Part shown: positions 1,022 to 55,582 of the stretch, piece by piece | Position numbering within the stretch: the stretch's first letter is position 1 | Layout: the number at the start of each line of letters is the position of its first letter | Origin: a virus | Lineage: Duplodnaviria; Caudoviricetes | DNA length: 64,000 nucleotides | Reading direction: 5' to 3' (one strand) | Virus record (IMG/VR): IMGVR_UViG_3300031555_004710 | Coordinates: 32,001 to 96,000 of that record | Program-made: the position numbers and the translations under genes | The notes under the pieces: model-generated | Databases searched by the model: none | Told to the model about the DNA's origin: nothing | The model's input: the letters and a program-made list of their open reading frames with translations, nothing else

Positions 1022-1093
1022 GTTTTTATCCTCCTTTTTATTATTCACAAAAATAATACATTATAATAAATAATTTTCAAATAACATCAATAT

Positions 1094-1275
1094 AATGAGG
1101 GAGAGGCTAGAATTTATCCTCCAATAAATCTTGTTAGTATACATGCTGATTTTTTACTAACACTCCTTTAAAATGTAAATTTTACCCATTTGCTCTTTTT
1201 GCACTTTTAACCACATTTAATCTCCCTCAATTATATTAAATCCCTAGTACACTCTTTGCCAAGTGTACTAGGGAT
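1094..1275 (+). ncRNA. Putative late small RNA 1: multibranch structure with anti-SD segments
   Basis: AACA-N6-TA at 1083-1094; closing stem TGAGGGAGA/TCTCCCTCA; internal hairpins; terminator hairpin about 1240-1275; no ORF on +. Confidence 0.6.
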
Positions 1276-1280
1276 ATTTT
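1240..1280. terminator. Bidirectional intrinsic terminator
   Basis: ATCCCTAGTACACT...AGTGTACTAGGGAT stem between convergent units. Confidence 0.8.
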
Positions 1281-1510
1281 TATTTATAGTTTATAATAAA
1301 ATGCAGTTCGTCATTTTCGAGAGTACATGATACATCTTGAATTGAATCTTTTTCATTAAACACTTTATCACAAAAATCCAAGAATTGATGAAAATGCTTA
1401 CATGCAATAGATTCTAATATATTTAATTGTACTCCACTTAGCTCATCGACTGCAAGATGTTTAAAGATTTCGACTCTATCCGCATTTTTGAGCTCCGAAA
1501 TATTTTCCAT
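1280..1510 (-). CDS. Hypothetical protein
   Basis: ORF track; start refined to ATG 1510 behind GAAAGGCGGTG. Confidence 0.65.
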   Translation of the reverse strand: MENISELKNADRVEIFKHLAVDELSGVQLNILESIACKHFHQFLDFCDKVFNEKDSIQDVSCTLENDELHFIINYK

Positions 1511-3923: not shown

Positions 3924-5477
3924 CTATTGGCCATTCTTATAAAGATTTCTAAAATTGTCTACAATCTGTTTTTCGATTTTTCCATCAGTGATTTTTATAT
4001 AAGATTCAAATCTATTATATAAATTTCTAAATAAAATATCAGATGAACTCAAGTAAACTCGCTTATCTTTTCCAGATCCAAAGATATAAACTCTTGCATG
4101 TTCAAGATATTTTCCAACAACAGTTTTACAATTTTTCAACTCTCTATTATGGAATCCTCTTGTGGTTCTCACAATAAGTTTCACATCACATTCGCGACGC
4201 ATTGCTTCTTTCAATAAACTCACAATCAATTTATTGTCTAAATGATTTGTCTGTATCCAGATTCTACCATTTTTACCTTTAGCAATCTCGGTATAAATTT
4301 CATTGGTTATAATATTTGATATTGAAGATAGTACTGGCTGTTCACTATTCCATAATACTGAAAAGTTTCGTTTAATCATATCGGTTACATTTTTCTCACA
4401 TGAAATATAATGATAATCTTTGTAAACTAACGCACTAGTAGCATTATAATTTCCAGTACTAAATACACCAATCGAAGGTGCATCTTTTAATCCAATATAT
4501 ATCATTTTTGCATGAACTTTAATTCCATTATATCTTACTTTGATATCGAGGAATTTATGATCTGCTTCTTTTAATATTTTTTCAAGATATATTATATCCT
4601 GTGAAATTTCACCTCTGGCATTTATTTCAAGATATAATTTACATTTAATCTTGTTCTTAGACGCATTAATTATAGAATCTATAATTGAAGAGTTTGACCC
4701 TAATCGGTATGCAGTAATATATATTGAATCTACTCTATCAGGATAATTTGCAGCCACAGATATCAAATCAGAAATATTCTCAAATGAATCATTTGGAACA
4801 TTTATGAGAACTGGTTTTGGGATAAATTCTGGATTATATCCATTAATAAATGACATAAAGTCATCTGACTTACACTTATCACCGTCAGAATAACATTTAT
4901 GCGAATTAGATGCTTCCCCAAATATATTAATAACCTTTAAAGGAAGATATATTATAATATCATTAGTTGGAGTTATTATAGCTATATCATCTTCATTGTT
5001 ACGTGATACTATACCTGTCTCATAAATACGAGGATAATTAAATCGAGTGTAGTATCTGTCTGTATCAATATTTTGTGTCTGAGCTATTGATAAATCTCTT
5101 TCTATTATATCGTAATTAATATCTATATAATCAAAGGGATTTTCTATCATTGTATATTTATATAAATCAATACTTATACTATTAGGACGTACATCATCAT
5201 ATATTTCATCACATTTTTTATAAATAGCTTTAAGATTCCTAATAAATAATTTGAAAGCAGATTTCAATTTATATTTATATGGATCAGTCTGAGCTCTCGC
5301 AATGGCTTCACAAGAATTTTTATACGCGATTAATACAAAATTGGCTCTAAGTTCTCTTGGGTAATTATCATTATTTGCTTCCTTAAGAACTTTTAATGCG
5401 AAATCAAATGCGCTATCTGTACGACAATCTACCACCCAAGTCTTTTTACTAGCGCCTTTCTTTTTATCTTTTTTCAT
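3924..5477 (-). CDS. ppk1: Polyphosphate kinase 1-like protein (shortened)
   Basis: PPK1 motifs YITAYRLGSNSSIIDS, LEINAR, KVHAK, TGNYN, GKYLEHARVYIF, SSSDILFRNLYNRFE. Confidence 0.85.
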   Translation of the reverse strand: MKKDKKKGASKKTWVVDCRTDSAFDFALKVLKEANNDNYPRELRANFVLIAYKNSCEAIARAQTDPYKYKLKSAFKLFIRNLKAIYKKCDEIYDDVRPNSISIDLYKYTMIENPFDYIDINYDIIERDLSIAQTQNIDTDRYYTRFNYPRIYETGIVSRNNEDDIAIITPTNDIIIYLPLKVINIFGEASNSHKCYSDGDKCKSDDFMSFINGYNPEFIPKPVLINVPNDSFENISDLISVAANYPDRVDSIYITAYRLGSNSSIIDSIINASKNKIKCKLYLEINARGEISQDIIYLEKILKEADHKFLDIKVRYNGIKVHAKMIYIGLKDAPSIGVFSTGNYNATSALVYKDYHYISCEKNVTDMIKRNFSVLWNSEQPVLSSISNIITNEIYTEIAKGKNGRIWIQTNHLDNKLIVSLLKEAMRRECDVKLIVRTTRGFHNRELKNCKTVVGKYLEHARVYIFGSGKDKRVYLSSSDILFRNLYNRFESYIKITDGKIEKQIVDNFRNLYKNGQ

Positions 5478-17174: not shown

Positions 17175-17212
17175 AAAAAGAGAAGACGGATAATCGTCTT
17201 CTCTTTATTTTT
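17175..17212. terminator. Bidirectional terminator
   Basis: AAAGAGAAGACG/CGTCTTCTCTTT between convergent genes. Confidence 0.8.
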
Positions 17213-19889
17213 ATTCAGAATCAAGTTCTTCATCATATAAATCATCTATATCGCTATCTTCGATTTCATCCTCTTCTTTTTGCTGTAATAAAAGAAGCTC
17301 TTGCTGTCGTAGAAGTTCCTCTTTCTCAGCTTTTGATTTACGTCCTCTCTTCTTAGGTGCGGTATTTGAGGAGTCTGAAGAAGTTATAGTTCGTGTAGAA
17401 GGAGTTTTAAGTTTATCTATGATGGATGATACATGTCCTTTAGTTGTTGCTTTTAACTGCTCTTTCAATTCATCAGTAAGTTCATATTGTTTATTTAACT
17501 CGGAATCATTGAAAATTTCATCCCAGCACATATCACATTTTTCGCCACGATATGATTCAATTGTAATAAAAGAATTCATCTTCTTATTAAATAAATCAAA
17601 TAACTCTTGATACATTTTTCTATTTCTAGGATAGTCATAAATAACATATTCTCCAAAATGTAGTGCACAGACTTTTGTGTCATCATGAATTTCAACTCTT
17701 CCTTCTGGAATAGGAGAGAAATACAAACGTAATCCCATAGTCTTTAACTTGGCTGCAAGAATATCAGCATTTGCATTTGTGTAAGTATCTTTTACTTTAA
17801 GTTTTTGAATCTTTAAAGGATTTCCATCGGCAGAAATAATTCTATCCAATGATTTTCTTCCTAAAGCAGAAGAACGCATAAATATGTTATATTCAGCTAA
17901 ATCCGAACCATTTATAGATGCCATTAAATTATAGATTTCAGAAAGTCTTACAGGAGTTCTAGCATAAGAACTTCTATTAGTTTTCTTCGCAATATCTTTT
18001 GCAGGAAGATTACTTCTATTTACTCTGAATGTACTTCTTGCAGAAAAGTTCTTATTTGAATTCTGTTTAAGAATTAAGATATACTGATAACCTATAACAC
18101 CTTGTCTCATAGTTTTTCTCTGTTGCATTCCGAATAAATCAACATATATATCTACAGGTTTTATATCTGGAAATGCATCATATAATCTAACTACATCATC
18201 AAATAATAACGGTTTATGAGGTGCTCTTACAATATAAAAACCATTTTCTTCAATATCTCTAATGAATGCTTCTTTATATTTTGGAGCCATGAATCTTATA
18301 GTTACACCATTAACCATCTTAGTTTCTTCATAACTATTGTAAAGAGTTTTAAAGAATGATGATTGGTCAGCATTTACACAATCTAAGAACTTAAATAGAA
18401 TTTCTTCTTTCTGTTTAAGAGTTTTAGCATTCTTAATCTTATGCTGAACCTGTTCAGCAATAAAATTTGTTTCAACTTCTACTAACTGTCCTGGATTAAG
18501 ACGACGAATTGCTCCACTAGAATTGGATAATACATCTGCATATACTCTTTTTCCATCTTGAATATAGTATGGCATACGTTCATCATCAACTATTGATATT
18601 TTAGATTTAAGAATTCTTCTATCATCTTCAGATAAAGTTCCATCATCTACCAAATCAATAATAGAATCTTCCAGAGAATTTGTATTATCTTCCATTAGTC
18701 TAGATATAACACCTTTATTACCATAACGTCCAGTTATCTTAGAACCTAATTCCAAACCAACGATAGATTTTACCTTAAATTCAAGTACAATATGTGCAAA
18801 TGCTTTATCTTTATTTTTCCATTTATACTCATTATCATTGTATCTTAAATATCTTGATCTAAGATAGCTAACATTGTTAGTATAATTACTTCCAGAGTTT
18901 TTAATGATATTACATGCTTCTAAAATTTCCCTTGCATATCTACAATTATCATCATAATATCTTTTAAGCTGACGATTAAATAAATTGCTTGGAAATTCTT
19001 CATCTCCATTATAATAAACATTTATGTCATAGACTATAGAATCTTTGGATGTGTAATAATCGGTATCAGTATCCATAAGTTCTCTCATATGTTCTTTCTG
19101 AAAATCATATAATAAATGTGCTTTATTAATTCTTCTAGTTGCACATATAAGTGAATCTTTTACTGGTTGCCCTATTTCGGGAAAAGGAATATAATTTTCA
19201 TTATCACCATAAAGATTTAATAAAACATCATTATCATTTACTGGTACTTGAACTTTATCTACTTCGACAGATTTTACATCATCTGCCCAACCTTTTCTTA
19301 TAACGATAGCATCTTCTATCGTATCAGTAGATGTTGAGTAAAATACTCTGGCATTCTTTCCATATCTATAATTCATATGGTCATCATATGCTGTAGATTT
19401 ATAAAGAATTTTATCGGTTATTTTATCACCAACTTCTAACGTATCCATATAAGAAGTATTATAAACATAACCAAATTTTTCGGTAAGATTTTCAGCAATT
19501 GGTTTTTCGATTATATCATAAGTATCAGTTTTCTTATTATATAATACTAAAGTATAAATCTGATGTTTTATTGTATTTGGGTCACTTAACATTTCATCAG
19601 TGAAACTAAATTTTGGAATGATTTGTTTAACTTCCCAAGTACCCTCAAGTTTCTTGAATGAGCGATTGTATTTACCAACAGAATTTTCAAACCCTGTTTG
19701 TAGATGTGGTACATCTGGAGATAATAAGGTCAATGATTGTTTTATATGCTGATTCCACATATATGCTCTACTAGAGTCGATAGTTGACCATGTTAATGAT
19801 GATGGTCCGAATAAACGAAACATCTCATCTCCACCATATTTATTATCTAATTCTTCTAATGTGTTCTTTAAATGTATATCAACAGGCAT
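17211..19889 (-). CDS. Non-virion multisubunit RNA polymerase beta subunit, C-terminal part (phiKZ gp71-73-like)
   Basis: SSRAYM..QHIKQ, EDAIVI, GSKITGRYGNKGVIS, DVLSNSSGAIRRLNPGQLVE; virion versus non-virion assignment inferred from split pattern and size. Confidence 0.85.
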   Translation of the reverse strand: MPVDIHLKNTLEELDNKYGGDEMFRLFGPSSLTWSTIDSSRAYMWNQHIKQSLTLLSPDVPHLQTGFENSVGKYNRSFKKLEGTWEVKQIIPKFSFTDEMLSDPNTIKHQIYTLVLYNKKTDTYDIIEKPIAENLTEKFGYVYNTSYMDTLEVGDKITDKILYKSTAYDDHMNYRYGKNARVFYSTSTDTIEDAIVIRKGWADDVKSVEVDKVQVPVNDNDVLLNLYGDNENYIPFPEIGQPVKDSLICATRRINKAHLLYDFQKEHMRELMDTDTDYYTSKDSIVYDINVYYNGDEEFPSNLFNRQLKRYYDDNCRYAREILEACNIIKNSGSNYTNNVSYLRSRYLRYNDNEYKWKNKDKAFAHIVLEFKVKSIVGLELGSKITGRYGNKGVISRLMEDNTNSLEDSIIDLVDDGTLSEDDRRILKSKISIVDDERMPYYIQDGKRVYADVLSNSSGAIRRLNPGQLVEVETNFIAEQVQHKIKNAKTLKQKEEILFKFLDCVNADQSSFFKTLYNSYEETKMVNGVTIRFMAPKYKEAFIRDIEENGFYIVRAPHKPLLFDDVVRLYDAFPDIKPVDIYVDLFGMQQRKTMRQGVIGYQYILILKQNSNKNFSARSTFRVNRSNLPAKDIAKKTNRSSYARTPVRLSEIYNLMASINGSDLAEYNIFMRSSALGRKSLDRIISADGNPLKIQKLKVKDTYTNANADILAAKLKTMGLRLYFSPIPEGRVEIHDDTKVCALHFGEYVIYDYPRNRKMYQELFDLFNKKMNSFITIESYRGEKCDMCWDEIFNDSELNKQYELTDELKEQLKATTKGHVSSIIDKLKTPSTRTITSSDSSNTAPKKRGRKSKAEKEELLRQQELLLLQQKEEDEIEDSDIDDLYDEELDSE

Positions 19890-36181: not shown

Positions 36182-36285
36182 AATTTCATCATTTCCTTTC
36201 AATAAAATAATATATTAAAGGATTATTTTTTAAAATAATATAAAAAATGAATACCATAAAATTTATTTCTAAATAACAATATACT

Positions 36286-36602
36286 AATGGATCCGAGAAG
36301 TTGATTCATTTCTATTAAATTTTTTAATTTAATAGACATTTCTTATTCTGCATCCGTCTTAAAACGGTAAAAGCTAATTTTTTCTCATTGTTCCCCTTGT
36401 GTTGATAGAGTTTTTTGTTGACATAGGCATGTAAGTCGAAAGTATTTTGCACCACATACGTTCTGCATTGACTATTCAGAGTTTTATGCTAGTATATGGT
36501 AAAAGTACTATAAAATAAGGGTCGTAGAAGAAACCCGTTGTTATCTTCTACGACCCGACCTTTCTGAATCTTTTTTAATGAAGTAGATTACTCTACTTCA
36601 TT
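36286..36602 (+). ncRNA. Putative late structured RNA 2 (about 300 nt)
   Basis: AACA-N6-TA at 36275-36286; several stems including GGGTCGTAGAAGA/TCTTCTACGACCC; no ORF; terminator 36577-36602. Confidence 0.55.
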
Positions 36603-36611
36603 ATTTTCTTT

Positions 36612-54763: not shown

Positions 54764-54884
54764 GTTATCACCTACTTTCTTAATAGGGTAAAACTTAGTT
54801 AGTTGACTTTAAGAATTTGTTTTTACCCCTATATTTTAGGCAAATAAAGCATGAATAGTCTTATTAAAGGACTATTCATGCTAT

Positions 54885-55540
54885 TCAAATAATCTAAATT
54901 TTAGAATTTAAATATAATACAAAAACTATAAAGAAAAATAAATAATTATATCAAAACGATAATTCTTTCATAGTAGCACAATTATACATTTCTTAATATT
55001 TTTTCAAATTAAAGTAATATATAGATTATATTTATAACACTAGGCTTCCATAAAAAATAATATTTTTACTGATATAAATAATGACTACACAACTCCCTCT
55101 ATTCAAGGTGAGGCATGTAATTGTCAAAGTTCAATATAAAATATCAATATTTATTTTCACGCTAATATGATATTTATAAAAAGTATTATTTAAATCGAAA
55201 AACTTAATATGATATATTCTTACACATACTGAATCTAAAATCGATTTGCTATAAATAAAAACTATTCATAAAAATAATTATAGTATTATAATTTATCTTC
55301 ATTCATTTAAATTACTTTATATTTTTATAATATTTACTTTAATGATACCATATTTATCTTAATTGAGTATTATAAGATATTTTCATATTTCAATTACCAA
55401 TTGAAATAAATCAATTAAAAAATATAATATAGTACAAAGAGCAAAAATAAGCACCGCTTATTCAAAGTACAGCTCTTTCTACAATAATATAGATATTGTA
55501 GCATATTAGAAAAATGTTAACCATCTAAAAAGATACAAAA
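54885..55540. other. Long, extremely AT-rich non-coding region (candidate replication origin)
   Basis: About 650 bp with no ORF, between two terminator hairpins; function is inference. Confidence 0.35.
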
Positions 55541-55582
55541 AAGAAGATAGTTCAACGACTATCTTCTTTTTATTATGTTCTA

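Follow-up and report, generated by a model that had tools for sequence, protein, structure and literature searches.

The DNA analysed here, henceforth called the window, is a stretch of 64,000 nucleotides corresponding to bases 32001–96000 of a 236,671-bp IMG/VR phage record (~94% complete, ~30% G+C), and DNA of this phage was present in animal faeces and gut metagenome runs, with no RNA run among those listed. The source phage is an uncultured AR9-like giant (jumbo) gut phage, and a split multisubunit RNA polymerase was recognised in its genome via a PF00562 match. A tRNA scan of the 64-kb window returned no hits. Close to the beginning of the window, an ORF-free gap separates two minus-strand genes, and within it begins a predicted RNA gene on the plus strand, which extends from 1094 to ~1283 (~190 nt including the terminator). 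The features of the locus, with SD denoting Shine–Dalgarno and P1 the closing stem of the RNA, are as follows:

338–1021 (−): early gene for a 227-aa protein (AlphaFold model, pLDDT 91.5)
1022–1279: ORF-free gap between two minus-strand genes, 338–1021 (227 aa) and 1280–1510 (76 aa)
1046–1060 (−): predicted divergent early-type promoter of the 227-aa gene, outside the RNA; TGTATTAT-N6-G, matches the AR9 early consensus
1083–1094 (+): predicted late promoter (non-virion RNA polymerase type), AACA-N6-TA; AACATCAATATA, predicted start A1094
1096–1104 (+): 5′ strand of P1; TGAGGGAGA, purine-rich and SD-like (UGAGGGAGA)
1118–1122 (+): exposed CCUCC, anti-SD-like motif A; unpaired probability 0.97, at the family-typical distance from the start
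1132–1162 (+): inner hairpin of the minimum-free-energy fold, lineage-specific; 1132–1139 pairs with 1155–1162, CAUGCU in the loop
1159–1170 (+): anti-SD-like motif B; ACACUCCUUU, unpaired probability 0.68–0.94
1159–1170 (+): second AACA-N6-TA match, inside the RNA; AACACTCCTTTA, promoter score rank 42/98
1221–1229 (+): 3′ strand of P1; TCTCCCTCA, pyrimidine-rich (UCUCCCUCA)
1240–1285 (+): intrinsic terminator, 14-bp hairpin (1240–1275) plus T run
17211–19889 (−): RNA polymerase beta-like protein (PF00562, RNA_pol_Rpb2_6, E = 1e-7)

The 227-aa protein was without a match in Pfam or PHROG. Its AlphaFold model resembled PCNA/gp45 sliding clamps (Foldseek E ~1e-5, TM 0.43–0.46), and on this structural likeness the early gene product is probably the gp45-like sliding clamp of the phage. 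An RNA-related role of this neighbour was looked for via its fold, and the sliding-clamp-like structure gave no hint of one. Since the neighbour is clamp-like, the conserved synteny described below reflects genome order at a boundary of late and early modules and not an RNA–protein pair.

Two recurrent motifs were found by printing the regions upstream of all genes. The late motif, (T/A)3-AACA-N6-TAA, was located 40–70 nt 5′ of ~40 start codons in the genome, and an early-type (class B) motif, TATATTAT-N6-G, preceded another set of genes. In AR9, the late consensus is AACA-N6-T(A/G) with the start site at its last base, and the two recurrent motifs coincide exactly with the late and the early consensus of AR9, respectively (PMC5312081). 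The match at 1083–1094, described as a perfect late promoter in the earlier note, indeed fits AACA-N6-TA exactly. Its predicted start, A1094 (+), lies 48 nt from the predicted start G1046 (−) of the early-type promoter, with divergent transcripts that do not overlap, and downstream of A1094 the plus strand is gene-free for 4.4 kb. The internal match at 1159–1170 scored slightly above the one at 1083–1094, and no conservation was seen in relatives beyond its ACAC(C)UCC core; if active, this promoter would give rise to a ~110-nt RNA without anti-SD motifs. Across the genome, AACA-N6-TA(A/T) was present in 98 copies, with 66 of the 98 falling into the 11% that is intergenic. Copies ending in TAA were nearly missing from coding sequence, which suggests that spurious late promoters inside genes are selected against. 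Ribosome binding sites (RBSs) behind late promoters paired more strongly with the Bacillus-type 16S tail than those behind early promoters (mean −13.4 vs −11.9 kcal/mol, P = 0.005).

In the window, P1 is a 9-bp stem (1096–1104/1221–1229) that follows the promoter and, together with the terminator hairpin (1240–1275), closes a stretch without any plus-strand ORF of more than 10 codons, in agreement with the earlier note. The exposed CCUCC at 1118–1122 and the stem (1132–1139/1155–1162) followed directly on its 3′ side by unpaired CUCCUUU (1163–1169) were likewise recovered as that note had described them. Compared with shuffled sequences, the fold of the RNA reached z = −7.0, or −4.7 when the terminator was left out. 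The terminator directly follows the stop codon of the convergent gene (76 aa), and it probably also ends the mRNA of that gene.

For the 227-aa protein, 32 homologues were retrieved from public assemblies (96–34% identity). Another 11 metagenomic sequences have the architecture of the RNA in the gap flanked by the 76-aa and 227-aa genes; in them, the neighbouring protein is 34–74% identical to that of the window and the gene order is kept (baseplate wedge, 540-aa protein, 76-aa protein, gap of ~160–360 nt, 227-aa protein). Ten of these relatives carry AACA-N6-TA at the same place together with the helix and a terminator (L005, L006, L012, L008, L019, L009, L010, L011, L013, L020). The element is also present in L016, with AACT for AACA, and a further sequence, L003, is identical to the window. 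Counting the window, the late motif stands immediately 5′ of P1 in 11 of 12 family members; the back-to-back arrangement with the early-type promoter also recurs in relatives (gap 19–22 nt), and a hairpin with T run equivalent to the terminator is present in every one of them.

An alignment of the whole RNAs with MAFFT followed by RNAalifold yielded 0 pairs with the ends misaligned, and the comparison was therefore anchored on the predicted start. P1 was found in 12/12 sequences with a length of 9–25 bp; in relatives it begins 1–4 nt after the predicted start (+1 to +4), and its partner strand lies 10–17 nt 5′ of the terminator hairpin. The sequences of the stem diverge widely (e.g., UGAGGGAGA, AAGAGGUCGGGG, GGAAAGCUAUC, GGGUCGUAUUGC, AAGGAAUUCUGG), and the 5′ strands are only 39% identical among members. 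Nevertheless, the eight core pairs formed by RNA positions +4 to +11 were canonical in 96/96 cells across the 12 members, with 2–5 pair types per position, so the covariation in related phages that the earlier note had proposed as a check was observed. Combining the 5′ strand of one member with the 3′ strand of another reduced canonical pairing to 55% (vs 100% for cognate strands), and sliding the partner by 1–3 nt reduced it to 49–66%. In 11/12 sequences, the end helix was better than those of 1000 dinucleotide shuffles (P ≤ 0.009). The purine/pyrimidine asymmetry of P1 is conserved as well, with a purine-rich, SD-like 5′ strand in 10/12 members. Wobble pairs (G-U) favoured the plus over the minus strand (8 vs 3), lending weak support to the plus strand as the RNA strand. 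The anchored alifold returned P1 only and no conserved inner helix, the alignment of the interior being poor.

The occurrence of the element was further assessed by scanning for a late motif combined with an end helix of ≥ 8 bp and a terminator. In the whole 236-kb genome, only the unit 1094–1283 was recovered, and the family members were recovered in the loci of the relatives. None was detected in 117 unrelated viral loci (1.04 Mb), which were taken as negative controls from the unspecific matches of an IMG/VR scan with the motif ACCTCC..AAGTCGWARAA; that scan gave >117 unspecific matches, none with the architecture. Searches of GenBank phages with the region (blastn) and with the 227-aa protein (tblastn) returned no match or jumbo phages that are only remotely related (Listeria LPJP1, Bacillus BpSp), and single-protein searches of IMG/VR returned nothing. 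Relatives at 38–49% were all that profile searches of JGI metagenomes and IMG/VR yielded, and of these L016 has the element and L014 and L015 do not. Among contigs from four sequencing runs, the short pieces were either identical or unrelated, and no new variant turned up. Rfam searches of the window and the 11 loci at gathering and permissive thresholds assigned no family, the only (sub-threshold) matches being located on the terminator hairpin, and no covariance model matched for 6S RNA, Y RNA, or phi29 pRNA (all RNAs with paired 5′/3′ ends), nor for C4. With a subclade profile (nhmmer), the genome gave no paralogue, and even the diverged copy in the window escaped detection. Judged by these sequence comparisons, the family is new and occupies one syntenic position, between the 76-aa gene and the clamp-like early gene, and it is shared by a clade of AR9-like jumbo phages whose sequences derive from gut metagenomes of animals. 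Two observations were made on the loci of individual relatives: L019 carries a group I intron at 4566–4935 (−) (Rfam RF00028, 58 bits), close to the gene that follows the clamp-like one, and a 258-aa database gene call at L011:3001–3777, for which a sense-strand ATG inside the RNA gene is in frame with the 227-aa gene, is probably too long.

The interior enclosed by P1 measures 85–180 nt (64 nt in the shortest member, L013), is pyrimidine-rich with 7–23% G, and is largely unstructured; the inner hairpin 1132–1162 of the window is missing from relatives. The pentamer CCUCC occurs inside 10/12 interiors (1.2 expected from dinucleotide shuffles), at RNA positions 25–43 in nine members, and its unpaired probability of 0.64–0.97 compares with molecule means of 0.36–0.50. 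GGAGG was never found on the plus strand of the 12 interiors. The remaining two members are L020, with two unpaired CUCCU copies and no CCUCC, and L013, with neither motif. Both ACCUCC and CUCCU are sequence of the 16S rRNA 3′ tail. A longer block is common to the subclade L005, L006, L012, L011, L008, L019, and L009, in which GUUCAUU and (G/A)ACACCUCC are followed, after a spacer rich in A and U, by AAGUCG(U/A)A(A/G)A and a CUUCUUUC-GCC tract. By sequence context, motif B of the window aligns with the ACACCUCC-N-AAGUCGUAAAU block of the relatives, and the segment ACACUCCUUU..AAUGUAAAU (1160–1183) looks like a diverged copy of the subclade block. Within the anti-SD sites, only the core ACCUCC/CUCC is conserved and the flanking arms are not. 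Of the late small RNA displaying anti-SD arms that had been proposed in the earlier note, the promoter, stem, terminator, and CCUCC are thus conserved, whereas the flanks that would make up the arms are not.

The mRNA targets named in that note were evaluated by pairing the two sites of the RNA with the RBS regions of 218 SD-led starts. The complementarities exist as described: against the RBS of gene 12865, site 1152–1175 forms a 16-bp duplex interrupted by one bulge (−19.9 kcal/mol, best of 218), against gene 59234 it forms 11 contiguous bp (−15.9 kcal/mol, third of 218), and UUUAUCCUCC (site 1109–1130) forms 10 bp with the RBS of the adjacent gene 1021 (−15.4 kcal/mol, best of 218). They are, however, no better than those of 400 control variants in which the CCUCC/CUCC core was kept and the flanks were shuffled. 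Mean best energies of these variants were −18.2 (site A) and −17.7 to −18.9 (site B), and the probability of a shuffled variant equalling or surpassing the real site was 0.975 for site A and 0.14–0.28 for site B. Energies no better than such controls had been named beforehand as the result that would speak against the targets. Cognate and non-cognate RNA/RBS pairs were equal for the orthologues of five neighbouring genes across relatives, local RBSs in relatives were negative as targets, and the RNA did not co-vary with the RBS of the orthologue of gene 1021. RBSs downstream of early promoters were bound as well as those downstream of late ones (P = 0.11 and 0.62), and a whole-interior search with RNAduplex was dominated by loopy AU pairing and gave no target. 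With four target tests negative, only the generic anti-SD core is supported. The proposal of a multi-target translational repressor, with arms pairing specifically with the RBSs of 12865, 59234, and 1021, can draw on these three being the best or near-best partners of two sites among the 218 RBS regions, but shuffles keeping the core equalled or surpassed the real sites (P = 0.14–0.975), no cognate advantage or early/late preference emerged, and the arms neither are conserved in relatives nor co-vary with the RBS of the gene-1021 orthologue; we regard it as improbable. Beyond this locus, SD-centred target matches in AT-rich phage DNA are not trustworthy without core-preserving controls.

The locus very probably encodes a genuine non-coding small RNA that is expressed from a late promoter and displays anti-SD-like sequence, as indicated by the sequence features compared above. 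That the RNA is real, late, and conserved is considered highly probable, and it is probably a generic binder of SD sites, as far as its conserved core indicates. For its working by SD pairing as such our confidence falls somewhat short of even. In the mechanism that we propose, the late (non-virion) phage RNA polymerase would transcribe the ~190-nt RNA from the AACA-N6-TA promoter, and the 5′ end would pair with the segment 10–17 nt before the terminator to form P1 round an unstructured interior. This interior would present ACCUCC or CUCCU in one or two single-stranded copies, which could pair with the purine-rich SD regions of mRNAs late in infection and hinder ribosome loading. Masking would be generic or loosely specific and not tuned to 12865, 59234, or 1021. 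P1 and the terminator would shield the RNA from exonucleases, perhaps aided by a 30S subunit on the SD-like tract at the 5′ end in the manner of STAB-SD. Both the late transcription by the phage polymerase and the action via SD pairing are what we infer from the sequence. With tens of thousands of ribosomes competing against an anti-SD of 5–7 nt, generic masking needs very high levels of the RNA. A late RNA of a previously undescribed family that masks SD sites generically is the best explanation as a whole, held with about even confidence.

Other readings of the same locus have to be weighed against generic masking. Conservation of CCUCC is by itself strand-neutral, as the motif reads GGAGG on the other strand, and the conserved feature could belong to the gene-sense (minus) strand or to the DNA, either as a small ORF or leader peptide with its SD or as a protein-binding inverted repeat, with a fortuitous plus-strand promoter. 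On the minus strand of the window, GAGGGAGA-N4-ATG does head a 19-codon ORF, GGAGGUG-N5–8-ATGAAC places an SD at start-codon distance on the gene-sense strand in one subclade, and an inverted repeat that forms a stem is a DNA palindrome, too. However, the latter arrangement is restricted to that subclade, where the ORFs comprise 3, 11, 15, or 33 codons or are fused with the next gene. No ORF was conserved in frame, start, or length on either strand among the relatives (lengths 3–47 codons), nor were the peptides. In L006 and L012, two closely related sequences, the best candidate ORF differs in frame owing to a 2-nt indel. From the terminator to the ORFs there is no minus-strand promoter, 11/12 sequences keep the late promoter in register with P1, and the wobbles favour the plus strand, all of which makes the minus-strand or DNA-level reading very improbable. 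A mini-ORF on the plus strand (..TPPF..KS-stop) was also considered and rejected, as it is without an in-frame start codon in L005 and L009 and its frame is broken in L008 and L019.

Two further explanations accept the late RNA and differ in its job, and each is thought unlikely, to about the same degree. The RNA might mimic the 16S tail as a decoy, soaking up not mRNAs but a protein or nuclease that recognises the 16S 3′ end, for example a host abortive-infection ribonuclease cutting the anti-SD or a maturation factor. Phage RNA decoys against host RNases are known (pseudo-ToxI), and a decoy would fit the absence of a specific mRNA target. Four lineages share the 7-mer CACCUCC and not only CCUCC, seven sequences have AAGUCG(U/A)A 8–15 nt downstream, and in a subclade AAGUCGUAA matches 16S positions 1492–1500. 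Yet the two motifs stand in reverse order relative to 16S, four members (L010, L013, L016, L020) are without AAGUCG and the window has a degenerate form of it (AAUGUAAAU), AAGUCGWA is unenriched in the genome (11 copies vs ~16 expected), and the Rfam rRNA models were without a match even at permissive thresholds; the resemblance was also spotted post hoc. Alternatively, the molecule could be a structured late RNA serving as protein scaffold, as sponge for a pyrimidine-binding protein, or as stability/processing element, in which CCUCC is incidental or takes part in intramolecular switching with the SD-like 5′ strand. This would agree with the pyrimidine-rich, G-poor interior, the conserved subclade motifs (GUUCAU, the CUUCUUUC-GCC tract, YUUGUCR), the conserved purine/pyrimidine asymmetry of P1, and the presence of further ORF-free late units in the same genome. 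Against it, CCUCC is the sole motif common beyond the subclade and is consistently unpaired.

Among characterised small RNAs of Firmicutes, RNAIII, which the earlier note had cited for comparison, and RsaE/RoxS seed on G-rich SD sequences through unpaired C-rich motifs and end in a Rho-independent terminator. The window RNA shares both the unpaired C-rich motifs and the Rho-independent terminator with them. RNAIII and RsaE/RoxS are host-encoded, carry their motifs in the hairpin loops of a defined structure, and have known regulons; neither sequence nor structure homology to the window RNA family was seen. Masking of ribosome binding sites by C-rich unpaired seeds is described both for Firmicute sRNAs and for the c4 RNA of P1/P7 (PMC12197685). 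The window RNA is comparable to these in being an independent non-coding unit from promoter to terminator with a single-stranded, SD-complementary seed, and targets beyond chance or co-varying with the RNA, as known for RBS-masking sRNAs, were not found among the 218 RBS regions and for the five neighbouring genes. The c4 antisense RNA (Rfam RF01695) is itself phage-encoded and trans-acting, with exposed loops that pair round an RBS and block translation (PMC12197685). Its phages are temperate, and it arises by processing of an operon transcript and acts in immunity on one target (ant) through two matched segments, whereas the window RNA has no Rfam match, no defined target, a lytic phage as its source, and a late promoter of its own.

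A partial parallel exists to STAB-SD, which stabilises RNAs in Gram-positive bacteria and is exemplified by a 5′ element of cry3A mRNA in Bacillus thuringiensis (PMC4113751). In 10/12 family members, an SD-like purine tract is located at the extreme 5′ end with no start codon behind it, and by analogy this tract may bind 30S and block RNase J1, adding stability (PMC4113751). The tract of the window family differs in being base-paired in P1, and the parallel would explain the 5′ end only and not the function of the RNA family.

A probable counterpart was encountered in AR9 itself. The late start 75478 (−), listed as ‘antisense g090’ in Table S3 of the transcriptome study, has a step height of 3757 and ranks among the four highest late sites; it is not presented as an sRNA in that paper (PMC5312081). 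It opens a 77-nt ORF-less stretch, AR9 75402–75478 (−) (L021:803–879), that begins with AAUGUCCUCCUGU, exposes an unpaired CCUCC at +6 to +10 according to the fold, and continues after 23 nt with a 16-bp terminator-like hairpin and a U-rich tail. The stretch looks like an overlooked sRNA. Like the window RNA, it combines an AACA-N6-TA promoter with an ORF-less transcript and an unpaired CCUCC, is intergenic (g090/g091) on the strand opposite to both neighbours, and runs into a hairpin behind a convergent gene. Its start is strong and experimentally mapped. It is an analogue and not a family member, since it lacks a closing stem and shares neither sequence similarity nor synteny with the family; it spans only 77 nt and neighbours the RNA polymerase beta gene. 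It is kept only in near-identical AR9/PBS1 isolates, which are too alike to reveal constraint on it. A wider generalisation, namely that an abundant late RNA with a free 16S anti-SD tail is made by AR9-like jumbo phages in general, of which the window family and AR9 75478(−) would be two forms, is rather unlikely to hold in our estimation. If true, it would imply a global reprogramming of translation by masking strong SD sites or by decoying a tail-recognising factor or nuclease, and hence a viral strategy directed against the SD/anti-SD interaction itself and not against single genes. To our knowledge, very few small RNAs with known function exist for strictly lytic phages, and a literature search for a described sRNA of AR9/PBS1 found none. 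AR9/PBS1-like jumbo phages run their own transcription. Together with its probable AR9 counterpart, the RNA gene offers a testable entry, in a cultivable Bacillus system, to the question whether giant phages use RNA in addition to proteins for translation control.

Additional late-promoter matches were noted in the genome. Outside the window, at G000:C1 ~211800–212025 (−), such a match lies immediately 5′ of two tRNA-like genes, and the phage tRNAs thus appear to be late transcripts; the tRNA of AR9 is reportedly transcribed late as well. At 55518 (−), another match leads into an 800-nt gap without a called gene (window 54764–55582), upstream of a 3925-aa ORF. A second ORF-free unit was recognised at window 36275–36610 (+), behind the late-promoter match AACAATATACTA and between two minus-strand genes. 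The nhmmer profile of the RNA-family subclade indicated no relation to this unit, which comprises ~325 nt with a fold z of −8.0, includes AAGUCGAAAG, carries two hairpins at its end, and is, by these features, probably another late ncRNA.
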